This document shows, one piece after another, positions 1 through 10,894 of a stretch of 10,894 nt of DNA. A program made the translations under genes and the position numbers. Within the stretch, counting starts at the first letter, position 1; the number at the start of each line of letters is the position of its first letter. The stretch comes from a virus. Taxonomy: Duplodnaviria > Heunggongvirae > Uroviricota > Caudoviricetes. The stretch is from the IMG/VR virus record IMGVR_UViG_2660238349_000010. One strand, given 5' to 3'. Under the pieces are notes generated by a model, which saw nothing but the letters and a program-made list of their open reading frames with translations, did not search any database and had not been told where the DNA came from.

Positions 1-660
1 ATGGATCGTATAGTTAGTTCTTCACATGACCGTACATCGCTGCTTAGCACCCATAAGGTGCTGCGTAATACCTATTTTCTGCTGAGCCTGACGCTGGCCT
101 TTTCGGCGATTACCGCAACTGCCAGTACGGTGCTGATGCTGCCATCTCCGGGTCTGATTCTGACGCTGGTGGGTATGTATGGTTTGATGTTCCTGACCTA
201 TAAAACGGCGAATAAGCCGACCGGGATTATCTCCGCATTCGCCTTTACCGGTTTTCTGGGTTATATCCTCGGACCAATTCTGAATACCTATCTGTCTGCC
301 GGAATGGGTGACGTAATCGCTATGGCACTGGGCGGAACGGCGTTAGTGTTCTTCTGCTGCTCCGCATATGTGCTGACCACCCGCAAAGATATGTCGTTCC
401 TCGGCGGTATGCTGATGGCGGGTATTGTGGTGGTGCTGATTGGTATGGTTGCTAATATCTTCCTGCAACTGCCTGCTCTGCATCTGGCGATCAGCGCGGT
501 CTTCATTCTGATCTCCTCTGGCGCTATTTTGTTTGAAACCAGCAACATCATTCATGGCGGTGAAACGAACTATATTCGTGCCACGGTTAGCCTGTATGTT
601 TCGCTGTACAACATCTTCGTCAGCCTGCTGAGCATTCTGGGCTTCGCCAGCCGCGATTAA
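1..660 (+). CDS. yccA: Inner membrane protein YccA (BAX inhibitor-1/TMBIM family, FtsH modulator); host chromosomal gene
   Basis: Complete 219-aa ORF from ATG at base 1 to TAA at 658-660. Strongly hydrophobic multi-pass protein. Translation [28 protein letters not shown]... recognised from memory as enterobacterial YccA; not confirmed by search. Confidence 0.88.
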
Positions 661-694
661 TCTCGCCCAGGGTTACTTACCGAGCCTCGCTTTA

Positions 695-781
695 TGATGC
701 GCCGCGCGATAAATGCACTCTATCTTGTGCGATAAATGGCATCCACGCGGCGTTTCATTATTTGAAAAAGAATTACATTTC
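695..781. repeat. Putative transposable-phage right end (attR-like) with MuA-binding-site-like motifs
   Basis: Plus strand from 695 reads TGATGCGCCGCGCGATAAATGC... The first 22 bp match my recollection of the phage Mu right terminus (TGAAGCGGCGCACGAAAAACGC) at 17 of 22 positions. CGATAAATG occurs at 707-715 and again at 730-738, the second copy at almost the same distance from the end as the CGATAAATG block of Mu R2. A CGTTTCAT motif lies at 751-758. Comparison is from memory, not alignment. Confidence 0.5.
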
Positions 782-1345
782 AGGTTGCGTTATGACAGTC
801 CCAACAGGGTGGTAGCGGTAGATCGTTGACAGTCCAATATCATAGATAATTGCCAGCCGCTTTCTGTCATACCCTTTCTGGAGCAATCTTGCGATCTGCT
901 CATGCTGCTCCTTCGTCAGTTTCGGGCGACGTCCTCCAACTCTTCCTTGTGCTCGCGCAGCAGCCAGTCCTGCCAGCGTGCGCTCAACTATCAGTTCACG
1001 CTCCATTTCTGCCAGTGCACCCATCATATGAAAAAAGAACCTTCCCATCGGAGTGCTGGTATCGATTGAATCCGTCAGACTGCGAAAATTGACACCTTTT
1101 GCGCGTAGCTCTTCTGTGAGAGCAATGAGGTGTTTCATTCTTCTACCCAACCGATCCAGCTTCCAGACCACCAATGTATCCCCTCTTTTAAGGCACTTTA
1201 AAGCGCGTTTCAGGCCTGGTCGTTCCGACTTGGTTCCGCTCATTTTGTCCTCAAAAATCTGTTCACATCCTGCGCACATTAATGCATTGCGTTGCAAATC
1301 TGTGTTTTGGTCATTTGTTGACACACGTATGTAGCCAATCAGCAT
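773..1345 (-). CDS. pin: Serine recombinase, DNA invertase (Pin/Gin/Hin/Cin family)
   Basis: 190-aa product from ATG (minus) at 1345-1343, preceded by AGGGAG. N-terminus MLIGYIRVSTNDQNTDLQRNAL... with catalytic-serine motif, and C-terminal HTH region ...ELIVERTLAGLAAARAQGRVGGRRPKLT... typical of Hin/Gin invertases. The ORF-track extension to 1474 is rejected because the conserved invertase N-terminus starts at 1345 and the extension would run through the crossover site. Confidence 0.9.
   Translation of the reverse strand: MLIGYIRVSTNDQNTDLQRNALMCAGCEQIFEDKMSGTKSERPGLKRALKCLKRGDTLVVWKLDRLGRRMKHLIALTEELRAKGVNFRSLTDSIDTSTPMGRFFFHMMGALAEMERELIVERTLAGLAAARAQGRVGGRRPKLTKEQHEQIARLLQKGYDRKRLAIIYDIGLSTIYRYHPVGTVITQPEM
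1250..1335. promoter_or_regulatory. Putative Fis-dependent recombinational enhancer inside the 5' end of the invertase gene (position inferred by analogy)
   Basis: In Hin/Gin systems the enhancer lies in the first ~100 bp of the invertase coding sequence. The corresponding pin segment (sense: GTGTCAACAAATGACCAAAACACAGATTTGCAACGCAATGC) closely resembles what I recall of the hin enhancer region. Fis sites were not individually identified. Confidence 0.3.
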
Positions 1346-1399
1346 TAAAAATACTCCCTTTTGAGTGGTTAAAGTACTGAGATAATGTGGGGAGGATTT

Positions 1400-1425
1400 G
1401 AGAGATAAACGTTGGTTTGGGGGAA
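1400..1425 (+). other. Crossover site 1 (hix/gix-like, 12-bp half-sites around a 2-bp TT core), orientation +
   Basis: GAGAGATAAACG TT GGTTTGGGGGAA. Lies about 55 bp upstream of the pin start and exactly at the 5' boundary of cassette C. The right half-site is identical to that of site 3 on the opposite strand. Confidence 0.6.
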
Positions 1426-1920
1426 GGCTCTGCACTGCCTGTTGGTGTGCCTGTTCCATGGCCCACCGCCACACCGCCAGCAGGCTGGTTAAAGTGCGAC
1501 GGGCGCGCCTTTACAAAAGAACAATATCCTGTTCTGGCCAGAGTCTACCCGACCCTCCGTCTTCCCGATTTGCGCGGTGAGTTTATCCGTGGATGGGACG
1601 ACGGGCGCAAAGTTGATACGGGGCGTTCATTGCTAAGTGGTCAGGCTGCAACATTTATTCGTACAGCTTTGCAGGATTATTACGGTTACGATCTGAATAC
1701 TAATGTCAAAGTAGGTATCGCTTTTGCTACTGCTGATTCTGTTATAACCGTTGGAAACCCAGCTAATCCTAAAGCAGGAAATAATAGCGATTATGTTCCT
1801 GCATCAGCAGATAACTCTATAACGGGTATTCAAAGGACAGCGGAGGATAATTTTACCGGGGCATGGATATCAATGCGCCCCCGCAATGTTGCGTTTAATT
1901 ACATCGTAAGGGCCGCATAA
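1414..1920 (+). CDS. Silent alternative tail-fibre C-terminal cassette C (collar-domain tip); no start codon of its own, promoterless in this orientation
   Basis: Open frame from the site-1 core to TAA at 1918-1920 encoding GLGEGSALPVGVPVPWPTATPPAGWLKCDG...RPRNVAFNYIVRAA. The first ~70 aa and last ~14 aa are shared with the expressed fibre tip; the middle is divergent. Confidence 0.75.
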   Translation, partial: GLGEGSALPVGVPVPWPTATPPAGWLKCDGRAFTKEQYPVLARVYPTLRLPDLRGEFIRGWDDGRKVDTGRSLLSGQAATFIRTALQDYYGYDLNTNVKVGIAFATADSVITVGNPANPKAGNNSDYVPASADNSITGIQRTAEDNFTGAWISMRPRNVAFNYIVRAA

Positions 1921-1939
1921 AAACGTTGGTTTAGGAGAA
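1914..1939 (+). other. Crossover site 2 (hix/gix-like), orientation + (direct relative to site 1, inverted relative to site 3)
   Basis: CGCATAAAAACG TT GGTTTAGGAGAA. Overlaps the stop codon of cassette C and is the 5' boundary of cassette B. Confidence 0.55.
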
Positions 1940-2443
1940 GGCTCGGCGCTACCCGTTGGTGTGCCTGTTCCGTGGCCCACCGCCACACCGCCAGCAGGCT
2001 GGTTACAGTGCAACGGAGCTACGTTCACTAAAGAACAATATCCTGTTCTGGCCAGAGTCTACCCGACCCTCCGTCTTCCCGATTTACGCGGTGAGTTTAT
2101 CCGTGGATGGGACGACGGGCGCAAAGTTGATACAGGACGTAAGTTGCTGTCCGCACAAGGGGCAACGCTGTTAAGAACAGCAATGCTGGATTATTATAAC
2201 CAGGACACTACGGGAACCTCGGGGATAGTCGGCATGGGATTCAACAATGAAGATTCCATTACAGACCTTCGTGAGGGCAGCTTTAAAATGCCGGACGGGA
2301 CAACATTCAGCGATCCTGTCGTGGCAATGTCAGACAATGGTATGCAGGCTACTATTCTGACCTCTATCAGAAGCGGGTATGCGAAGGGTATCACTGTCAG
2401 ACCCCGTAGCATTGCACTTAATTACATTGTGAGGGCAGTTTAA
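1928..2443 (+). CDS. Silent alternative tail-fibre C-terminal cassette B (collar-domain tip), translationally coupled to the downstream tfa
   Basis: Open frame from the site-2 core encoding GLGEGSALPVGVPVPWPTATPPAGWLQCNGATF...RPRSIALNYIVRAV. Its TAA at 2441-2443 overlaps the tfa ATG at 2443 by 1 nt (TAATG). Its first ~200 bp are nearly identical to the reverse complement of 3330-3541. Confidence 0.75.
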   Translation, partial: GLGEGSALPVGVPVPWPTATPPAGWLQCNGATFTKEQYPVLARVYPTLRLPDLRGEFIRGWDDGRKVDTGRKLLSAQGATLLRTAMLDYYNQDTTGTSGIVGMGFNNEDSITDLREGSFKMPDGTTFSDPVVAMSDNGMQATILTSIRSGYAKGITVRPRSIALNYIVRAV

Positions 2444-3057
2444 TGAGTAACACTGCAGTTCTGGATGAAAACGGTATCGCCACTGTAGCGGGCGAGATCA
2501 CTGTATATCACTATGACGAGGAAACCCGGGAATACACCTCATCCTCTGTGGAGTATCTCGCCCTTGGGGTGGGTACTCCGGCACATTCGTGCGCCGATGC
2601 ACCGCCGGAGGCAATTTCGGGTTACGTGGTTTGCCGGACTGCCACGCTGAACGGGTGGGAGCATGTGCCTGATCACCGCGGCGAGACGGTATACAGCACG
2701 GAGAACGGTAACCCCGTTCTGATTACCCAACCGGGTGATTACCCGGCGGACACCACCACAAAACAGCCGGCCACGCCATGGGATACCTGGAACGGTGAGG
2801 CGTGGGTAACCGATACTGAACGGCAGCGAGCCGCAGAACTGGAGGTTGCCAGACAGCAACGCCAGCAACGGGTGAAACAGGCGATGGCGTCCGTCGATCT
2901 TATCAACCTCAAACTGCGTGCTGGTCGCAGTCTGACACCAGAAGAAACGGCAAAACTGAACGCCGTGCTGGATTATATCGACGAGCTGAACGCACTGGAT
3001 ATCAGCACGGCACCTGAAATCAGCTGGCCGGAAGCGCCACTGGCACTTGCCAGCTGA
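2443..3057 (+). CDS. tfa: Tail fibre assembly protein (Tfa/gpG/U-like chaperone), cognate to cassette B
   Basis: 204-aa ORF immediately after cassette B with stop/start overlap. Size, position and acidic C-terminal region (…LNAVLDYIDELNALD…) fit the tail-fibre-assembly family. Converges on the fibre gene, stop to stop, with a 6-bp gap. Confidence 0.7.
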   Translation: MSNTAVLDENGIATVAGEITVYHYDEETREYTSSSVEYLALGVGTPAHSCADAPPEAISGYVVCRTATLNGWEHVPDHRGETVYSTENGNPVLITQPGDYPADTTTKQPATPWDTWNGEAWVTDTERQRAAELEVARQQRQQRVKQAMASVDLINLKLRAGRSLTPEETAKLNAVLDYIDELNALDISTAPEISWPEAPLALAS

Positions 3058-3063
3058 ACGGTA

Positions 3064-4656
3064 TCACGCCGCCCTCACGATATAGTTAAACGCGATATTG
3101 CGGGGGCGGGTTATGTTAAAGAATGCTCCGTTTAATTCGGCTTTTGCGCGACTGTTTGTTCCACCCAGAATTGCGTACCACAAATAATCGCTACGGTAAT
3201 TCCCCGCAAACACCTTATCGCCGCCATAGTCAATATTATTTCCGTTACTCATGTACGAGATATCCAGCGAAGAATCGTTATCGTCATGACCGCCGACCAG
3301 TGTACCTTTCTGCCATGAAAGCAACTTACGCCCCTCGTCAATCTTGCGCCCGTCGTCCCATCCACGGATAAACTCACCGCGTAAATCGGGAAGACGGAGG
3401 GTCGGGTAGACTCTGGCCAGAACAGGATATTGTTCTTTGGTGAACGTAGCTCCGTTGCACTGTAACCAGCCTGCTGGCGGTGTGGCGGTGGGCCACGGAA
3501 CAGGCACACCAACAGGCAATGCAGAGCCTTCCCCCAAACCAAGGTAATTGAGGACATCTTTTATACTGCCCTTAGCGATAATAGCGCGACCAATAGCTGT
3601 AAGGGTTGCCAGCGCTGCGCGGTCTGCTCCGGTAAAATAAGGCAACCGATCTGCTGCAGTGGCAAGTCCTGCCAGAGCAGTGAGCGTGGCATCTGCCGGT
3701 TGTTTTCCGTTTGCCAGATCGTATGCAGCCTTGACCGCTTTCGGTGTGGCGGCCAGTATTTCAGACGTGCTGTTGATGGCACTGCTCAATTGTATGGTGC
3801 CTTTTGCCGTCAGCGAGGCAGCAGGCACTCCCGTTATCTGACTCCACGGGTGAGTGTGGCTGACGGGCGCCTTGCCGGCTGCAAGGTCGTATGCAGCCTT
3901 GACCGCCTTCGGCGTGGCAGCCTCAGTTTCTGATTGACTGTCCGTGGCGCTGCTCAGTTGTACGGTGCCTTTTGCCGTCAGCGAGGCAGCAGGCACTCCC
4001 GTTATCTGACTCCACGGGTGAGTGTGGCTGACGGGGGCCTTGCCGGCAGCCAGGTCATATGCAGCCTTGACGGCCTTTGGTGTGGCGGCCAGCGTTTCAG
4101 AGGTGCTGTTGGTGGCACTGCTCAGTTGTACGATCCCTTTACGGGTCGTTGTTGCATCCTGGGCTGTGTATTTTCCCCGGGCCAGATCATACGCGATTTT
4201 CACAGCCTTCGGCGTGGCAGCCTCAGTTTCTGATTGACTGTCCGTGGCACTGCTCAGCTGTACGGTGCCTTTTGCCGTCAGCGAGGCAGCAGGCACTCCC
4301 GTTATCTGACTCCACGGGTGAGTGTGACTGACGGGTGCCTTGCCGGCTGCAAGGTCGTATGCAGCCTTGACGGCTTTTGGTGTGGCGGCCAGCGTTTCAG
4401 AGGTGCTGTTGGTGGCACTGCTCAGTTGGGTGAACCCCTTAGCTGTCAGTGTCGCGTCCGGGTGGTTACGGGAACGTACGTGTTCAGCCAGTGACTGTGC
4501 GGCTTCCTCCGTTTTTTTCTTCAGCCATTTCGTCCTGTTTGCCAGTTGCCGGGGGGCTCGATTTGATATCCCGTCAGCACCACCCAGAACCGGATCTGAT
4601 GTCTCCAGTTGATAGATTTTTTCTTCCCACTTTTCTGTTTCATTCAGGTTTCCCAT
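3064..4656 (-). CDS. Tail fibre protein (P2 gpH-like N-terminus and shaft repeats; collar-domain C-terminal tip = cassette A currently fused)
   Basis: 530 aa from ATG (minus) at 4656-4654; the ORF track starts 2 codons earlier at TTG 4662. Overlaps the gpI stop. Five copies of the motif TAKGxxQLSSATxSxSETxAATPKAVKxAYDLAxGK, and ...KQPADATLTALAGLATAADRLPYFTG..., recalled as characteristic of P2 H. C-terminal 159 aa after site 3 form the variable tip. Confidence 0.9.
   Translation of the reverse strand: MGNLNETEKWEEKIYQLETSDPVLGGADGISNRAPRQLANRTKWLKKKTEEAAQSLAEHVRSRNHPDATLTAKGFTQLSSATNSTSETLAATPKAVKAAYDLAAGKAPVSHTHPWSQITGVPAASLTAKGTVQLSSATDSQSETEAATPKAVKIAYDLARGKYTAQDATTTRKGIVQLSSATNSTSETLAATPKAVKAAYDLAAGKAPVSHTHPWSQITGVPAASLTAKGTVQLSSATDSQSETEAATPKAVKAAYDLAAGKAPVSHTHPWSQITGVPAASLTAKGTIQLSSAINSTSEILAATPKAVKAAYDLANGKQPADATLTALAGLATAADRLPYFTGADRAALATLTAIGRAIIAKGSIKDVLNYLGLGEGSALPVGVPVPWPTATPPAGWLQCNGATFTKEQYPVLARVYPTLRLPDLRGEFIRGWDDGRKIDEGRKLLSWQKGTLVGGHDDNDSSLDISYMSNGNNIDYGGDKVFAGNYRSDYLWYAILGGTNSRAKAELNGAFFNITRPRNIAFNYIVRAA
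3529..3554 (-). other. Crossover site 3 (hix/gix-like) inside the fibre gene at the constant/variable junction
   Basis: Minus strand reads TCCTCAATTACC TT GGTTTGGGGGAA, encoding LNYLGLGE. The core TT sits in the same codon positions as in sites 1 and 2, so either inversion gives an in-frame fusion. Confidence 0.6.
3700..4450 (-). repeat. In-frame coding tandem repeats of the fibre shaft (units of 36/56/44/56/56 aa)
   Basis: Near-identical DNA blocks, for example about 3900-4030 versus 4200-4330 (about 130 bp with about 3 mismatches, 300 bp apart). Visible in the ORF track as a repeating plus-strand shadow ORF (MTVRG[A/T]AQLYGAFCRQRGSRHSRYLTPRVSV...) at 3934 and 4234. Confidence 0.85.
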
Positions 4657-4658
4657 AA

Positions 4659-5237
4659 TCAACTGCTCCCGTGGTTATAACTGCCATCATGGATGGCGGT
4701 ATTGTTATAGCGAATGGCCACAGACTGATACTCCAGGCTGGCCAGATGGCAGCGGGCCGGTGCAAATGCAGCGAGCGTCTGACGCAGCATCGCGGCCTGA
4801 TCGTTAGTAATGGGCTGTTTCAGAATAACGCGATAAACCGCCCAGGCGGCTGCATCTCCATGAACAAACAGTCCGTTATAGCTGCGATTGCCGTCGTAAC
4901 TGAGACGACCTGTGCCTTCAATCAGATCCACTTCACCAAAGCCAAAACGGCGGATAACTTCCCGGATTGACCACGGCGTCCCTTTATACCGGTGTAGTTC
5001 GATGGCTGCTTTTATAAGCATGCGGCGAACATCGTCCGATTCCGCCAGCTCCCAGCCATCGCCAGACAGTGAGAACTGCTCGCCCAGCCATGGCAGCGCA
5101 GAACTGTCGACGATATCGACGAGAAAGACCATCAGTACGCTCAGGTCGATGTTATCCAGCCGCCCTGCCAGTCTTCCCAGCGTCCTGAGACTGATATCAC
5201 CCTCAAGCGGTGGCGGGAGTTGTAATGGCTCAGTCAT
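4659..5237 (-). CDS. Baseplate/tail protein gpI-like (Mu gp48 position)
   Basis: 192 aa from ATG at 5237-5235 (ORF track starts at GTG 5249). The ATG overlaps the gpJ-like stop (ATGACTGA). Position between the J-like gene and the fibre gene matches P2 I and Mu gp48. Family call from synteny and size. Confidence 0.7.
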   Translation of the reverse strand: MTEPLQLPPPLEGDISLRTLGRLAGRLDNIDLSVLMVFLVDIVDSSALPWLGEQFSLSGDGWELAESDDVRRMLIKAAIELHRYKGTPWSIREVIRRFGFGEVDLIEGTGRLSYDGNRSYNGLFVHGDAAAWAVYRVILKQPITNDQAAMLRQTLAAFAPARCHLASLEYQSVAIRYNNTAIHDGSYNHGSS

Positions 5238-6333
5238 CAGACACTCCACTCATGTTAAGTGTGATCGCCGTACAGTTTGCCCATTCGTTTTCTGCCACCA
5301 CCCTCAGTGCCGGTGTCACCAGTTCAACCTGGTACACCCCGGAAACGGACAATGCACTGATAATCTGGCTGGGGACAATATCACGCCCCAGCGTGGCGGC
5401 ACGTGATGCCACCCAGTTCTGTATGGCGCTGTTAGCGGCATCTTTTACAGACCTGGCATCCTGATCACGATAGATCGTAATCCTGGCTTCAATGGTGTAA
5501 TCCACCTTCACTGGTGTTTTAGCCCGCACTGTATCAGTGAGTGGCCTGACTTTCTCATCAGAGCAGAAACTCTCTACCAGCGTGAGAACACCGCCGTCCG
5601 GCAGACCGGTACTGAGCAGCGGATACAGATCTACGGTCCCGGGAACCGGGGAAAGCACAGCAACATCGACAATGTTGGGATGGGCCTGCATGGCATGAAA
5701 GCGGTATGCGCCACGGCTTCCGGCATTGGTGAATGACTCCGGGGCCAGCCTGATACGCTCCCGGAGCCTGTCATCGTCTTCCTGTTCTGAACCGCCGGAA
5801 CTGGCCGTCAGATTGCTCACCAGCAGGTCGACGTTATCAATCTCATCGAGTAACTGACTGACCTGCGCAGGTTGCCAGCCGTTACCAGCGGTACCGGGTT
5901 CGGTACAGGTGGACGTGACATTGACCAGCAGCAATCCGGCCTTCAGTACCACATCTGTATCGGTGGCAAAAATAACGCTGTCGGAAGCGCTGACGCGGGT
6001 GCCTGCCGGGATCAGCACATCAATGGTCAGTGCCTCATCCACAGAGAACTGAAGTGTGGTGGTGGCAGGCTGCGCGGCAAGGCGGTATACACCAACCAGT
6101 TCTCCGAGGTAATCAATCATCGGCTCTCGTGAAAAGGCGACCAGATTCTGCTTTGCTGCCTCCTGTACCGCAACCCTGACCAGCATTTCGCGATAGGCCC
6201 ACAGATCAATCAGCAGACGTTCTGCCTGTGCCGGGTACAGCGTTTTGCCGGTATCCGCTTCATACTTCGCAATCATTTCTGCCGTGATTTTGTCGGCATC
6301 GCGTTCAATAAAATCGGGTTCTGTCAGCGCCAT
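5230..6333 (-). CDS. Baseplate assembly protein gpJ-like (Mu gp47 position)
   Basis: 367-aa ORF whose start overlaps the gpW-like stop by 10 nt. Size and position fit baseplate J. Family call from synteny and size, moderate. Confidence 0.75.
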   Translation of the reverse strand: MALTEPDFIERDADKITAEMIAKYEADTGKTLYPAQAERLLIDLWAYREMLVRVAVQEAAKQNLVAFSREPMIDYLGELVGVYRLAAQPATTTLQFSVDEALTIDVLIPAGTRVSASDSVIFATDTDVVLKAGLLLVNVTSTCTEPGTAGNGWQPAQVSQLLDEIDNVDLLVSNLTASSGGSEQEDDDRLRERIRLAPESFTNAGSRGAYRFHAMQAHPNIVDVAVLSPVPGTVDLYPLLSTGLPDGGVLTLVESFCSDEKVRPLTDTVRAKTPVKVDYTIEARITIYRDQDARSVKDAANSAIQNWVASRAATLGRDIVPSQIISALSVSGVYQVELVTPALRVVAENEWANCTAITLNMSGVSDD

Positions 6334-6671
6334 AGCAACTCCTGAGTCCGGGTCTGTCCGTCTGAGCCTTTCCAGCTCACCCGGAGCGTAAGATGTTCGC
6401 CGTCGACGGCGGGTTTAACTGACATAAGCTGGCAGCGGGGCTCCCAGCGTCGGATGGCATCGACGGATTCGCGCACCACATGCGGAATGGCCCGGTCTAC
6501 AGGCCAGTCGATATAAAGATGCAGATTGCTGCCGAACTCCGGGCGATGCGGGTCGCTGCCGCGGGGAGTCCGCAGGATAATTTGAATCGCCTGCCGGATA
6601 TCATCCAGCCCCCGGACAATTTCGCCGGGAGCCTGCAGGGTCGGTTGCCAGAATACTGAGGTTGTTTTCAT
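6324..6671 (-). CDS. Baseplate protein gpW / gp25-like (Mu gp46 position)
   Basis: 115-aa ORF, the typical size of the GPW_gp25 family, sitting between the spike and J-like genes. Confidence 0.75.
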   Translation of the reverse strand: MKTTSVFWQPTLQAPGEIVRGLDDIRQAIQIILRTPRGSDPHRPEFGSNLHLYIDWPVDRAIPHVVRESVDAIRRWEPRCQLMSVKPAVDGEHLTLRVSWKGSDGQTRTQELLWR

Positions 6672-6689
6672 GGGGGCAGTATTGCCCCC
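6672..6689 (-). promoter_or_regulatory. Perfect 7-bp stem / 4-nt loop hairpin abutting the gpW-like start codon (possible RBS-sequestering structure)
   Basis: GGGGGCA gtat TGCCCCC at 6672-6689, inside the only real intergenic gap (54 nt) of the tail operon and directly 5' of the ATG at 6671-6669 on the mRNA. Not followed by a U-tract, so not a terminator. Confidence 0.4.
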
Positions 6690-6725
6690 GTGCGGGAACG
6701 CTGATATTAAAGGCGTTTAAAAAGC

Positions 6726-7322
6726 TCAGTGGGAGTGGTGGCTGGAGTTTTCGCCATCAGACAACATACTGCCCGTGGCATGGGCATTCCCTTTAATCTC
6801 GATATTGCCATGGATGGTCGCGGTAACACCTTCACCACCAGAACCCGCCATGCCTCCTTCGTAAATCAGCTTACCCCTGACACGCAGATCTCCGGTAAGT
6901 TCGGTTTCCGGTGCGTCAATCGTGGCTTTCTGTGTTTTCAATACCACATCAGCACCACACTCAATGACAATATGCTCAATGCCGCCCCGGATGATCAGAG
7001 TGTGCGTCTTCCGGTTGTAGCTGTACTCTGCACCATCAGCAAACCGGGTTCCCCGGATATTTTTGTCACTGAACGGTGGTTTATCGACGTCTGAATACAC
7101 CGCGCCCAGAATAACACCATCCTCGCCGTTGGCATCGAGCAGCACCTCAACCTGCTCCCCCACGTCAGGGAGCCAGTAATCTTTGTTATCCTGGGTATTG
7201 CGCTGCAGCACGTTAAGCCAGTTTGTGCGCAGGTTATCGCATTCAGGCAGACGAACGCGGGCCTGAACCCTGTCGGCATCAACGGCACTGACCGTACCGA
7301 CCTGACGAGTGACACCAGTCAT
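6726..7322 (-). CDS. Baseplate spike protein gpV-like (Mu gp45 position)
   Basis: 198-aa ORF whose ATG overlaps the gpD-like stop (ATGA). Size matches Mu gp45 / P2 V spikes. C-terminus ends ...SDGENSSHHSH (His cluster). Confidence 0.75.
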   Translation of the reverse strand: MTGVTRQVGTVSAVDADRVQARVRLPECDNLRTNWLNVLQRNTQDNKDYWLPDVGEQVEVLLDANGEDGVILGAVYSDVDKPPFSDKNIRGTRFADGAEYSYNRKTHTLIIRGGIEHIVIECGADVVLKTQKATIDAPETELTGDLRVRGKLIYEGGMAGSGGEGVTATIHGNIEIKGNAHATGSMLSDGENSSHHSH

Positions 7323-8491
7323 TTTTTCTTCTCTCTTATTACTGTGGACGTGCTGCCGTCCGGTTTATAGATGGTCAGCATCCGGGTTTTGCCGATTTTT
7401 TTACCTTTCTTCGCCTTGCCCTGTGTGATCGGCCCCCGTGCCACTTCCAGCTCTGTGGTGTAGCCGCTGTTACGGTCAAACGCATGGCGGGCAGTGGTTA
7501 TGAGCCATGGCCCGGATAACTGCCCAAAACCCACCAGTTCAATTTTGTTGCCTGCTGTCAGTTGAGGTGTTCCCGTCAGCGTCAGGGAGCCGTTCTGCTG
7601 GTATTCGTTATGTCTGGCCAGTGCTGAATCCGCTTTAATCCGGGCACTGTCCGGGTCGCTGACGCGGCTGTTAACTTTAAGTGAGTCAGCGCTGGTAACC
7701 TTACCACCTTTGAGCTTTTTGTCGCTTTCACGGGTACCACCATCAGCTTCGTAGACGATCAGTTTTTTACTGCTGCTTTTCTGGTGTTTTACCTTTGCAG
7801 ATTTATAGACCCGGTTGATGGTGTCACGCAGGGAAAAGCGGGCCACATCCTGCGGTTTTAACTGCCTGACCGGCTCCTGACTGCGCAGTGTGGCCAGATG
7901 AGAAAAAATCAGCTGGTCACTGACCACTTTCACTGCATAACCATACTCGCTGGCCAGCCGGCGCAGAAAACCCACGTCGGTTTCAGCATACTGGGTCACC
8001 CGGTCGATTCTGATGGACTCAATGCTGCCCACCAGTTTCAGCCGGTGCTTTCTGGCAATCCGCCCCGCAACAGCTGCCAGCGTGGTGTTCTCAAAACCAC
8101 GACTGGTTTTAGTCCGCAGGGCACTGTTAACCGAGGTGGCCACCCCACGGATAGAAACAACGGAAGCGGGCGAACTCACTTCGATCTCGTCTATAGAGAA
8201 CGTACCGCAGGACAGCAGCTTCTCGTCCTGATAGCCCATTTTCAGCGTCAGCGTGTCACCCTTGCCCGGATACCACTTATCCAGCCAGCGGCCATCGGTG
8301 TCGTCCAGCTCCACCTCAATGGTATCGGACTCATTTTTGATGTTATCGCTCCAGGTCACACGGGTGACATAAGGCGCGATATCAGAGGTGATGTTTTTCT
8401 GCAGATACCACAGAGTGAACACCGGTGTCAGCACATCGCTGACGCCGGTTAACGCTGATGTGACTTGCGCAGTGCTGTTTATCTCAGCCAT
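7319..8491 (-). CDS. Baseplate hub / late control protein gpD-like (Mu gp44 position)
   Basis: 390-aa ORF, close to the 387 aa of P2 gpD. C-terminal ...NSGYTTELEVARGP... resembles the gpD family. Sits between gpX-like and the spike. Confidence 0.8.
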   Translation of the reverse strand: MAEINSTAQVTSALTGVSDVLTPVFTLWYLQKNITSDIAPYVTRVTWSDNIKNESDTIEVELDDTDGRWLDKWYPGKGDTLTLKMGYQDEKLLSCGTFSIDEIEVSSPASVVSIRGVATSVNSALRTKTSRGFENTTLAAVAGRIARKHRLKLVGSIESIRIDRVTQYAETDVGFLRRLASEYGYAVKVVSDQLIFSHLATLRSQEPVRQLKPQDVARFSLRDTINRVYKSAKVKHQKSSSKKLIVYEADGGTRESDKKLKGGKVTSADSLKVNSRVSDPDSARIKADSALARHNEYQQNGSLTLTGTPQLTAGNKIELVGFGQLSGPWLITTARHAFDRNSGYTTELEVARGPITQGKAKKGKKIGKTRMLTIYKPDGSTSTVIREKKK

Positions 8492-8691
8492 GGGGCAATA
8501 TCCTCTTCTGTACGGGCTTCTTCAGCCTCAATCACCGGGATCAGTAACAACAGCCCGGAGGGCAGCACCGGCGTGATGGCCACGTGCGGATTGGCGGCAA
8601 TAATCCGGGGATAGCCCAGCGGGTCACCGTAGTACTGCCATGCCAGCGAATCCCAGCGCTCTCCGTCACGGGTAACATGTTCAAGAAACAT
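8479..8691 (-). CDS. Tail protein X-like (LysM-like small tail protein)
   Basis: 70 aa from ATG at 8691-8689, overlapping the gpU-like stop (TGATG). Pattern ...DSLAWQYYGDP...IIAANP...LPSG... fits P2 gpX (about 67 aa). Confidence 0.65.
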   Translation of the reverse strand: MFLEHVTRDGERWDSLAWQYYGDPLGYPRIIAANPHVAITPVLPSGLLLLIPVIEAEEARTEEDIAPWLR

Positions 8692-9575
8692 CACACACTC
8701 CTCGTCAGTATTCTGGCGGCCATTGCACTTAATCCCGGAGACATGCGGTTGAATGCTGTTCCGACGGCGTTAAGCTGCCCGGAAACGGTATCCAGAGCAC
8801 CTGCAATATTTCTTTTGTCCACACCACTCAGCGCAGACTGTGCCTGCTGTACATACGTGGCTGCTTCGCTGGCTGTTCTGGCCAGACTGATGGCATCGGG
8901 CATGGATTCAGAGAGTGCGTTAAACGCCGGAACACTTTTCCCCAGAGCCCCGGAGATATTACCCAGTCCGCTCATCAGCCCCGGCACACGGGTCAGTGCG
9001 ACAACGGGGTTATCCTTCATTTTCTGTGTCACTCGAACGGCGCTGATAGTGGTCTGGAGTACAGACTGCGCCTGTTTCGCATAGTTGACGCCGTTGCGGA
9101 TGAACTGCGCCATCCCGGAAGGTGAAGGAATGGCACCGGAGACCGCCCCGACACCCGGGAGCTTCGTGCGTATTGCCGGTGGTTGCAGAGGATTTTTCGG
9201 GTCACCGGTGTATTCCCGGAGAGACACGGTGGCACTGACAGCCAGCACGTTGCCGGTACTGTCAGTCTGCTCGCTGGTTGCAGTCACATCGGTAATCACG
9301 AACCAGCCGCGATAGTCACCGTTGCCGAAGACCAGCGCCAGTGCCTGATGGGCTTTCATGGCTGTTCGCAGTCTCGCCAGCTCCACATCGGGTACACAAT
9401 AATGCTGATGGAAAACCAGAGTTATCTGGATTTCGTCCAGCCTGTCGCCGACGAACTGCAGGCCAGGCTTACCCCCGATGCGGGCATGCTCCGCATAATC
9501 GACGCCGAACGTGGCCTCGAAGCCGTCCCAGTAGGTAATCAGCTCAAACTCAATATCACCCAGTACGGCAAACAT
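8691..9575 (-). CDS. Tail protein with gpU-like N-terminal domain plus ~160-aa Ala/Ser/Gly-rich C-terminal extension
   Basis: 294-aa ORF whose ATG overlaps the tape-measure stop (ATGA). N-terminal ~130 aa (LGDIEFEL...QFVG...GWFVITDV...LREY) fits the P2 gpU tail-formation pattern. It occupies the slot of Mu N, after the tape measure. Confidence 0.65.
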   Translation of the reverse strand: MFAVLGDIEFELITYWDGFEATFGVDYAEHARIGGKPGLQFVGDRLDEIQITLVFHQHYCVPDVELARLRTAMKAHQALALVFGNGDYRGWFVITDVTATSEQTDSTGNVLAVSATVSLREYTGDPKNPLQPPAIRTKLPGVGAVSGAIPSPSGMAQFIRNGVNYAKQAQSVLQTTISAVRVTQKMKDNPVVALTRVPGLMSGLGNISGALGKSVPAFNALSESMPDAISLARTASEAATYVQQAQSALSGVDKRNIAGALDTVSGQLNAVGTAFNRMSPGLSAMAARILTRSV

Positions 9576-10894
9576 CAGCGGTACTCCTTACGTTGTTTCT
9601 GAGCCAGCAGACGCTCCAGCATTTTTTCCAGCTCATGCAGACTCATATTCAGGGCACCAGTCAGTCCTGCAGGCGCTGTGGTTTCCCTGCCATTGAGGAA
9701 AAACTGAGGATTAAAGCTGACCTGGATACCACCAGACGTTCCACCGCCGGTTGCAGCTGCACCACGGCCTGAATATCCGGCAGCCAGGATTTCAGGCGAG
9801 GGGATACGGGGAACATCCGGTGTCATCTCATTTGCCAGACGTTGCCCTGGTAAAATCGATGCCCGGGTGGAGAGCGGAATAACGGGCATGGAAGACAAAC
9901 TATTGATTACGGCTCCGATCGCATTTTTAGCAGACGACATAAACCCATTGATATCGGGCAACGGCATACTGAAGCGAACACCTGAAGTGTTATCCCGTAT
10001 TTCTGGCCCCTGAATGCTCACGGGCATTCTGGGGAGCAGTTCACTGGCCATTCGCTGCCCGGCCAGAGCTGCAAGCGGAGTGGTCCGCTGCAGGCCAATG
10101 GCGGCCCCCTGCGCGATATTGTCACCAAAGCCCATAAACACGCGGCTCGGCGAATGAATGCCCAGCTTTTCGCTGAACCAGCCACTGATGCTGTCACCCA
10201 TTCCGGTTACACTGGATTTGAGCGACTCCCATTTGTTTTTGATACCGTTAATCAGACCGTCGACAAGATGGCCACCGAAGTCGGTGAACTTTGCCGGCAG
10301 ATCAACACCAAGATATTTCAGCGCAGCTGCAAAGGCTTTATAGAGCAGACCTGCCGGCGACCAGTTAATCAGCAGCTTACCAGTTCCCGCGATACCGCCG
10401 TTAAAGGCTTCCTGAATGTCAGCCCAGCACTGTTTAAACCAGCTACTGATGCTGTCACCCATTCCGGTTACACTGGATTTGAGCGACCCCCATTTGTTTT
10501 TGATACCGTTAATCAGACCGTCGATAAGATGGCCACCGAAGTCGGTGAACTTTGCCGGCAGAGCAACGCCGAAATATTTCAGCGCAGCCGCAAAGGCTTT
10601 ATAGAGCAGGCCTGCCGGCGACCAGTTAATCAGCAACTTACCAATTCCCACAATGCCGCCGTTAAAGGCTTCCTGAATGTCAGCCCAGCGCTGTTTAAAC
10701 CAGCTACTGATGCTGTCACCCATTCCGGTTACACTGGATTTGAGCGACCCCCATTTGATTTTGATACCGTTAATCAGACCGTCGATAAGATGGCCACCGA
10801 AGTCGGTGAACTTTGCCGGCAGAGCAACGCCGAAATATTTCAGCGCAGCCGCAAAGGCTTTATAGAGCAGGCCTGCCGGCGACCAGTTAATCAG
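9575..10894 (-). CDS. Tail tape measure protein, 3' part (5' end lies beyond the window)
   Basis: Long minus-strand frame open to the window edge, directly upstream of the gpU/X/D genes. Contains 87-aa tandem repeats and a Gly/Ala-rich C-terminal region. Assignment rests on synteny and repeat architecture. Confidence 0.7.
   Translation of the reverse strand: MINWSPAGLLYKAFAAALKYFGVALPAKFTDFGGHLIDGLINGIKIKWGSLKSSVTGMGDSISSWFKQRWADIQEAFNGGIVGIGKLLINWSPAGLLYKAFAAALKYFGVALPAKFTDFGGHLIDGLINGIKNKWGSLKSSVTGMGDSISSWFKQCWADIQEAFNGGIAGTGKLLINWSPAGLLYKAFAAALKYLGVDLPAKFTDFGGHLVDGLINGIKNKWESLKSSVTGMGDSISGWFSEKLGIHSPSRVFMGFGDNIAQGAAIGLQRTTPLAALAGQRMASELLPRMPVSIQGPEIRDNTSGVRFSMPLPDINGFMSSAKNAIGAVINSLSSMPVIPLSTRASILPGQRLANEMTPDVPRIPSPEILAAGYSGRGAAATGGGTSGGIQVSFNPQFFLNGRETTAPAGLTGALNMSLHELEKMLERLLAQKQRKEYR
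10174..10894 (-). repeat. 261-bp (87-aa) in-frame tandem repeat array within the tape-measure gene, truncated by the window end
   Basis: Units at about 10174-10434, 10435-10695 and 10696-10894+ with only a few substitutions. Seen in the ORF track as plus-strand shadow ORFs at 10158, 10416 and 10677, all containing ...LNQ[L/P]LMLSPIPVTLDLSD... Confidence 0.85.

Follow-up and report, generated by a model that had tools for sequence, protein, structure and literature searches.

Close to one end of the stretch of viral DNA analysed here (the window, 10,894 nt), an open reading frame that runs off the sequence contains head-to-tail copies of a 261-bp unit that are nearly identical to one another. 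Which protein carries this array, how does its unit number change, and what would such a change do to the virion? The reading that we consider probable is that the array, of one to three units, lies in the tail tape-measure protein (TMP) of a BcepMu-like prophage, that its history is one of misaligned exchange, and that tail length would change with it in steps, the last point following from the ruler principle for tape measures.

The array itself is resolved by several independent means. Tandem Repeats Finder (TRF) places it at window positions 10176-10894 with a period of 261, 2.8 copies, 96% matches, 0% indels and a score of 1326, and an independent seed-and-extend search recovers three in-register copies spaced by 261/261 nt at 94-95% identity. 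Up to the window edge, the visible part amounts to 2.75 head-to-tail copies of the 261-bp unit. Inter-unit DNA identity is 94-99.5% and free of indels, a level that over 261 bp is far above chance expectation. Translation of the minus strand from 10894 to 9575 gives a single open frame of 439 aa plus stop with the array in frame, and each 87-aa unit reads SWFKQ[R/C]WADIQEAFNGGI...KNKW[G/E]SLKSSVTGMGDSIS. The array is an 87-aa module repeated in frame in the C-terminal third of the tail tape-measure protein (Table 1). The array end reported by TRF, 10176, lies beyond the last unit because the first codons (GWF) of the conserved motif that follows the array repeat the start of the unit. Within the full 1070-aa protein, the array spans aa 608-868, immediately preceded by two hydrophobic, membrane-like segments (aa 477-508 and 572-600) and immediately followed by the GWFSEKLGIHSPSRVF motif. 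A sequence-only reading of the window had described near-perfect tandem repeats of 261 bp and 87 aa in at least 2.8 copies, and TRF, the seed-and-extend search and translation all bear this description out. It had also stated that the array runs off the window, which holds as far as continuation is concerned but not for a long array: in the closest relatives (L019 and L001), the array ends ~78 nt beyond the window edge, at exactly 3.0 units. Three units are likewise predicted for the genome from which the window comes.

Table 1 Features of the tail region of the window that bear on the array
Feature	Position	Strand	Basis or remark
TMP gene, 3' part: C-terminal 439 codons and stop (9575-9577)	9575..10894	minus	Open frame; 5' two-thirds of the gene outside the window
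Proximal unit, type A, last 63 of 87 codons, cut at window edge	10706..10894	minus	
Middle unit, 87 codons, type A save for a B-type first codon	10445..10705	minus	Translation and SNP map
Distal unit, type B, 87 codons	10184..10444	minus	
Conserved motif after the array, GWFSEKLGIHSPSRVF	10136..10183	minus	
gpU-like tail protein gene; start overlaps the TMP stop	8691..9575	minus	PF06995 Phage_P2_GpU, E=7e-39
P2-like tail/baseplate genes gpX, gpD, gpV, gpW, gpJ, gpI	4659..8694	minus	PF05954, PF04717, PF04965, PF04865, PF09684

The three units of the window are not equally distant from one another. The middle and distal units differ at 14/261 nt, and the division of these differences at synonymous sites that the same reading had proposed gives 6 synonymous and 8 non-synonymous changes (7 aa). 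The middle unit differs from the partial proximal unit at 1/189 nt and is identical to unit 2 of four relatives (L001, L006, L007 and L019). At unit codon 70, the proximal unit has an ATC (Ile) allele of its own, and this SNP is without match in the complete E. coli genomes (best 99.9%). On the plus strand, each unit also contains an ORF of 61-62 aa (10158-10343, 10416-10604 and 10677-10865); these ORFs are antisense echoes and not genes.

Which gene carries the array can be answered from its full-length relatives. Taken alone, the window fragment has no Pfam match over threshold and yields sub-threshold noise only (DUF5009, Chalcone_2), because the diagnostic domain is upstream, outside the window. 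A megablast search with window positions 9400-10894 against 5,426 complete E. coli genomes matched 634 genomes (best 99.9%), and all of these matches are annotated 'phage tail tape measure protein'. The fragment differs by 1 nt in 1320 from L019 and by 1 in 1495 from L001, each compared over the 3' end of a 1070-aa gene, and the full TMP gene of L001 (NZ_CP029747) is 3213 nt long and encodes 1070 aa. Full-length relatives match PF10145 PhageMin_Tail (E=1.3e-20, 74.6 bits; cut-off 33.2) and TIGR01760 tape_meas_TP901 (59.8 bits; cut-off 28.8), and PF10145 is present in 120/120 homologues listed in a search of 5.8 billion proteins. Moreover, the gene order is that of a P2-type tail, sheath - tube - DUF7739 - PF10109 chaperone (with an overlapping GpE-family ORF) - TMP - gpU, continuing with gpX - gpD - gpV - gpW - gpJ - gpI - fibre. 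In L001, the TMP is preceded by a PF10109 gpE-type tail assembly chaperone and followed by gpU/gpX/gpD, and the tail/baseplate genes are annotated in the same order as in the window. Judged by the domains of full-length relatives and by gene context, the truncated ORF encodes a tail TMP. The earlier identification of the gene as a tape measure is in this way upheld, by PF10145 and TIGR01760 in the full-length relatives and by the position between chaperone and gpU.

The surroundings of the gene point to the kind of element that hosts it. Upstream of the tail, L001 carries genes for a DUF935 portal, Mu F-like head morphogenesis, virion morphogenesis (Mu G) and Gp37/gp436. The closest phage by tblastn is Escherichia phage PhiKM (PQ738613, Bcepmuvirus), with 96.7% protein identity over the TMP, followed in the ranking by Klebsiella phage KP12, BcepMu gp44 and phiE255. 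BcepMu gp44, phiE255 gp18, the P2 gpT-type TMPs and the PhiKM protein occupy the same position (chaperone E/E' - TMP - gpU - gpX - gpD), and the Bcepmuvirus TMPs share the PF10145/TIGR01760 core with the gene of the window lineage. They differ in the module: the 846-aa BcepMu gp44 matches the second half of one module only, whereas the window lineage has 2-3 modules. By this gene content, the host element appears to be a transposable BcepMu-like E. coli prophage that combines a Mu-type head with a P2-type contractile tail. The phage end lies at window positions 693-695, ~35 bp after the host gene yccA, and this yccA-prophage junction is shared by no complete E. coli genome searched. In relatives, the host flanks vary by lineage and include yehQ, codA, yeiB, ybaP, malE, irp2, barA, helD and the suf operon. 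The exact 530-aa tail fibre of the window occurs at six loci, all at other insertion sites and none adjoining yccA. The chromosomal site thus differs in nearly every lineage, in keeping with the essentially random insertion of transposable phages of this kind, and recent transposition or infection is implied.

How variable is the number of units? Among the relatives, complete genes differ by whole units, such that a gene of 2691 nt (896 aa) has one unit (L009 and L010), a gene of 2952 nt (983 aa) has two (L008 and L013; L014 also has two, with a later annotated start) and a gene of 3213 nt (1070 aa) has three (L001, L005, L006 and L007). Phage KP12 and a second E. coli lineage of greater distance encode an 821-aa protein with one unit, in contrast to the window lineage, which has expanded to 2-3. 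Population frequencies were estimated with the whole three-unit gene against the complete-genome set, from which 60 records were taken at even steps down a ranking of 635. The best-place span was 2952-2953 nt, or two units, in 38/60 records and 3213 nt, or three units, in 14/60; single units of the close lineage (2691 nt) account for 2/60, a divergent one-unit type (2454 nt) for 3/60, and shorter or partial spans from truncated or remote genes for the final 3/60. The largest protein cluster (1,995 members) represents the 983-aa form. No span longer than 3213 nt occurs in the 60-genome sample, and alleles of at least four units are found neither in that sample nor among the matches listed from 5.8 billion proteins, where the longest homologue (P0001, 1084 aa) contains a 101-aa duplication that is not a fourth unit. 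The missing alleles of more than three units could reflect selection against longer tails, or they could reflect just limited sampling.

A single-unit query returns 1-9 units per genome with a median of 2. Counts across genomes, those of the 60-record sample included, are inflated by clonal sampling, many of the genomes being ST131. Where genomes with more than three units were checked, the best-match gene still has 2 or 3 units, and the excess over three presumably comes from additional prophage copies. The six loci that encode the identical 530-aa tail fibre have 2 or 3 units each. A TMP rearrangement of another kind, a 68-aa deletion, is seen in one relative (P0106).

One explanation that must be weighed at this point is that the repeat, or its copy number, is an artefact of assembly, as the sequence-only reading had itself cautioned. 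A 261-bp unit at 94-99% identity is longer than short reads, the array of the PhiKM record is interrupted by a 100-N gap and annotated 'coding region disrupted by sequencing gap', and numerous proteins in the databases are 'partial', ending near the array. However, clean steps of 261 nt together with lineage-specific SNPs recur in ~630 closed genomes from many laboratories and platforms, and the crossover patterns of the hybrid units described below are biologically sensible. We regard the chance of an artefact as negligible, and the objection is excluded by the consistent array structure in hundreds of closed genomes. The same property does have practical consequences. In NZ_CP048920 and NZ_CP103710, PGAP annotates the 3213-nt ORF, which is intact and has no internal stop, as two 'incomplete' pseudogenes. 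The array breaks short-read assemblies and misleads annotation, and prophage typing and calls of 'intactness' are therefore unreliable at this locus.

By what route does the unit number change? A SNP map of 32 variable unit positions resolves two haplotypes, A (proximal) and B (distal), which are 14-17 nt apart; proximal and middle units are 0-3 nt apart, boundary codon set aside. Outgroup lineages have a single unit that lies between A and B, as would be expected if one ancestral module had been duplicated long ago. The middle unit of three-unit genes begins B-type at the 5' end and continues as A-type, and the position of the B-to-A switch differs among lineages: it falls between unit nt 3 and 16 in L001, L006, L007, L019 and the window, between nt 16 and 51 in L005, and between nt ~70 and 96 in L020. 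The expansions accordingly comprise at least three different crossover products. The single-unit genes are hybrids as well. The L009 unit stays A-type as far as nt 96, is B-type from nt 117 onwards and agrees with the two L008 units, and the L010 unit combines the 5' portion of the first L013 unit with the second; the contractions thus involve two different crossover points. Patchy conversion is also visible, with B-type tracts at nt 51-72 of unit 1 in L013 and at nt 62-70 of unit 1 in L007.

These patterns show the following history. The ancestral state is one module, from which an older duplication produced a proximal A and a distal B unit that are now ~5-6% diverged. Misaligned homologous exchange, recent and repeated, has since generated the three-unit alleles (A-hybrid-B) and the one-unit alleles (an A/B hybrid), the middle-unit pattern being what unequal exchange between two misaligned A-B arrays is predicted to yield. 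The hybrid units are proof of misaligned homologous exchange. The exchange could proceed by RecA-mediated unequal crossing-over or by replication slippage/sister-strand exchange, and the data fit both routes. With respect to tempo, the non-repeat TMP DNA (~2.1 kb) is informative. It shows 0 differences between L010 (one unit) and L013 (two units), 6 between L009 and L008, and 11 between L001 (three units) and L013. Strains with the different alleles include AVS0947 (NZ_CP124460, one unit) and AR_451 (NZ_CP030337, two units), which have the same TMP flanks, as well as DLI.5a (one unit), 2020S05-235 (two units) and 2016C-3878 (three units). Alleles of different unit number are separated by only 0-11 flank differences; units are therefore gained and lost repeatedly, and quickly compared with point substitution. 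The initial proposal that units are gained or lost by slippage or recombination is in this way supported by the one-, two- and three-unit alleles of near-identical prophages and by the A/B hybrids. Its companion claim of recent expansion agrees with the distance of 0-3 nt between proximal and middle units as against 14-17 nt between A and B.

Are these alleles merely the debris of prophages in decay? Under this explanation, constraint on non-functional prophages would be relaxed and the alleles would be without phenotypic meaning. It is true that the sequences come from prophages in bacterial genomes, and that relatives show other TMP rearrangements, namely the 101-aa duplication (P0001) and the 68-aa deletion (P0106) mentioned above. 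Against it, all complete relative TMP ORFs are intact and in frame (17/17, from E. coli genome loci, KP12 and BcepMu, a count that leaves out PhiKM with its 100-N gap), and the whole tail and head modules are intact. Units A and B differ with a pN/pS of ~0.4 (59 synonymous and 202 non-synonymous sites), and purifying selection acts on the in-frame array. The different chromosomal site in nearly every lineage, with the recent transposition or infection that it implies, and the 96.7%-identical TMP in the deposited phage record PhiKM likewise speak against it. For these reasons, decay is considered a very unlikely explanation.

The module is not confined to the window lineage. A phmmer search with the 87-aa unit against 1.84 billion cluster representatives (50% identity) returned 579 proteins at E<=1e-3 and 321 at E<=1e-10. 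The matched TMPs are typically 800-1500 aa long, with the match at about two-thirds of their length. Among the best 150 of the 579, a list ranked by total score that favours multi-copy proteins, 78 have one matched stretch, 52 two, 16 three, 3 four and 1 five. Inspection of 12 distant TMPs revealed a common layout, in which an LLMNPIGL-type hydrophobic segment and 1-4 diverged modules (periods of 75-117 aa) precede GWF..LGIHSPSRVF; this last motif follows the module in every distant TMP inspected. The module consensus is W..I..AF.GGI.G...LI.NWSP.GL.Y.AFA.....FGV.LP..FT.FG. In some distant homologues, half-modules are repeated alone (the first half in P0149, the second in P0243), which suggests that the module may consist of two sub-modules of ~42 aa that can be duplicated separately. 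The multi-module TMPs (four modules in P0122; two to three in P0123, P0131 and P0134) have the same module in tandem between the same flanks. Their copies are old and diverged (~37-50% identical to the 87-aa query, with periods of 75-117 aa), whereas those of the window lineage are 94-99% identical in DNA and still turning over. TMP length in this family has thus evolved recurrently by module expansion, and the window shows the youngest stage of that process. The idea that the repeat unit is the most conserved part of the TMP was rejected, as the unit belongs to a larger conserved block at aa 480-720. The gene is also mosaic, its central 100-480 region being replaced between lineages.

What would one unit more or less mean for the tail? 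Length control by tape measures is textbook, and experimental tests of it have relied mainly on engineered mutants of T4 and a handful of siphoviruses. In contractile tails, each ring contributes a rise of ~4 nm. The ruler principle goes back to Katsura & Hendrix, as summarised in PMC3271669, and in lambda gpH, TP901-1 and T4 gp29, in-frame internal deletions and duplications shift tail length proportionally, as cited in PMC3271669, PMC8616913 and PMC13585406. The related transposable myovirus KS10 combines an 811-aa TMP with a tail of ~140 nm, corresponding to 0.17 nm per residue (PMC2628397). If every residue accounts for 0.15-0.17 nm, one 87-aa unit would add ~13-15 nm, which is roughly 3-3.5 tube/sheath rings, and the 896-, 983- and 1070-aa alleles would form a stepwise series of tail lengths. 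This natural allelic series occurs in near-identical prophages that are widespread in clinical E. coli including ST131. It allows the ruler model to be tested directly and with little effort in a contractile tail of the P2 type, and it would yield a value in nm per residue for a defined module.

An alternative hypothesis is that the module is real and variable in copy number but lies outside the ruler, either as a compact or hairpin fold or in a membrane or conduit role after ejection, such that tail length would change little or not at all and unit number would tune some other property. The module directly follows the two membrane-like segments at aa 477-508 and 572-600, and it may for that reason lie in a portion of the TMP that acts after ejection. 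Each unit has Gly/Pro-rich breaks (NGGIxGxG, LPAKFTDFGG and TGMGDS), at which it could fold back instead of extending, and the W/F/NWSP positions are conserved over hundreds of distant TMPs, suggesting a specific interaction and not a passive spacer. An AlphaFold2 single-sequence model of the 439-aa fragment is mostly helical with one break per unit and shows a helix-loop-helix per unit, but its mean pLDDT of 42 makes it unreliable. On the other hand, tail length changes in proportion in every tested system, namely lambda gpH, TP901-1 and T4 gp29 (the three sources cited above), and TMP lengths in the family scale with module number. Moreover, the hydrophobic autocorrelation over aa 520-880 peaks at 7 (0.31) and, weakly, at 11 residues (0.20), a periodicity that is expected of amphipathic helices and typical of extended ones. 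A module outside the ruler is accordingly judged unlikely. A bolder hypothesis, which we hold to be rather improbable, makes the module more than a spacer, namely a functional unit, serving for example in a trans-envelope conduit after ejection or in gpE/E' docking, whose copy number would be under diversifying selection, with unequal exchange at a high rate keeping the adaptive alleles in flux. If true, alleles could for example be matched to the thickness of the host capsule/LPS, and the array would be a contingency-like locus in a phage structural gene. The ruler reading, in which the module adds length, remains the one that we prefer.

How does this array compare with the repeats already described in tape measures? 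That phage TMPs contain tandem repeats which are duplicated and lost is established knowledge (Belcaid, Bergeron & Poisson 2011, PMC3271669), and the array described here is a young example of a known phenomenon that would not surprise a specialist. A literature search of limited coverage found no paper describing this array, and nothing specific on PhiKM or on unequal crossing-over in TMPs. Like the repeats of Belcaid et al., the array is internal and in frame with conserved W/F positions, units are duplicated and lost as TMP length evolves, and gene length is expected to be proportional to tail length (PMC3271669). A 2026 survey treats TMP repeats as mainly a siphovirus feature, and most of those described are from siphoviruses, whereas the tail here is contractile and P2-type (PMC13585406). 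Unlike in the repeats of Belcaid et al., the copies are near-identical in DNA, one, two and three units occur as a series in near-identical prophages of one species, and the crossovers can be reconstructed. The unit is also of a different size, 87 aa (261 bp), as opposed to an 11-aa period with W/F markers (PMC3271669). A test for an 11-aa period failed, since 87 is not a multiple of 11 and the aromatics of the unit (positions 2, 3, 7, 14, 28, 35, 38, 44, 45, 53, 56 and 72) are without strict 11-aa spacing. The array works like the 11-aa W/F repeats but is outside that repeat family. A sub-period of 29 aa (3 x 29) or 11 aa within the 87-aa unit was likewise considered and is unsupported, and the 87-aa module is the period in which the array repeats.

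The tape-measure array is a hazard to annotation and to assembly. In the two relatives NZ_CP048920 and NZ_CP103710, each of which carries three units, the 3213-nt tape-measure open reading frame (3139-6351 of each locus) has no internal stop, and RefSeq/PGAP presents the gene as two 'incomplete' pseudogene pieces; apparently, protein-guided gene calling was misled by the repeat. The deposited genome of Escherichia phage PhiKM (PQ738613) contains a sequencing gap of 100 N that falls exactly within the array (at 4915-5239 of the locus) and breaks the tape-measure gene into two CDS. Between units, codon 70 of the module varies at one nucleotide with three alleles, AAC (Asn), AGC (Ser) and ATC (Ile). 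The proximal unit of the window carries ATC (10757-10759), an allele that none of the complete E. coli genomes searched was seen to share.

The tape-measure gene is mosaic between two E. coli lineages, as judged from alignment of the protein of the single-unit locus L009 with those of loci L003 and L011. Identity is at least 95% over residues 21-80, only 17-50% over residues 100-480, which form the PF10145 core, and 85-97% over residues 500-720, which comprise the hydrophobic segments and the module and are followed by a 75-aa indel. Two homologues, each from a single contig, represent further length variants of the window's tape measure. In P0001 (1084 aa), a 101-aa duplication with a non-homologous junction (...GTGKLL/REGGKLRW...) takes in the second hydrophobic segment together with the first third of a unit. 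P0106 (915 aa) has lost 68 aa from its N-terminal half, in a deletion that lies between a pair of 'LGD' motifs. More distant tape measures found with one 87-aa unit (P0130, P0187 and P0149; 1300-1500 aa) combine the module with duplicated 'GWF..LGIHSPSRVF' motifs and, at the C-terminus, with long arrays whose proline-rich or Q-rich repeat units measure about 20-25 aa. These arrays and doubled motifs are additional, independent routes of length expansion.

At the other end of the window, the host gene yccA is separated from the prophage end by ~35 bp, and this junction is absent from all 5,426 complete E. coli genomes searched. The host gene adjoining the phage end changes in nearly every relative (yehQ, codA, yeiB, ybaP, malE, irp2, barA, helD, suf). 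The unshared yccA junction and the varying host neighbour are together the hallmark of a Mu/BcepMu-like transposable phage.

Features of the prophage end and tail-fibre region (window coordinates).
Feature	Position	Strand	Details
yccA (host gene)	1-660		
Phage end	about 693-695		within 661-700
Gin/Cin-type serine invertase	773-1474	-	beside the inversion segment
Inverted repeat, 226 nt	1409-1634 / 3320-3545		90%
Inverted repeat, 229 nt	1923-2151 / 3317-3545		93%
Silent alternative C-terminal fibre cassettes (two)	ORFs 1417-1920 and 1961-2443		
Tail fibre gene	3064-4656		contains second tandem repeat of window
Second tandem repeat	3712-4140	-	period 168 bp (56 aa), 2.6 copies, 85% matches

The segment at 1409-3545 is a multiple-inversion system acting on the C-terminus of the tail fibre, in which both inverted-repeat pairs connect the expressed fibre gene with the two silent cassettes. 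In the relative NZ_CP029747 the segment lies in a different orientation, giving a fibre of 643 aa versus 530 aa in the window. The 168-bp repeat within the fibre gene matches Phage_fiber_2 (PF03406) repeats, five of which were found by Pfam.
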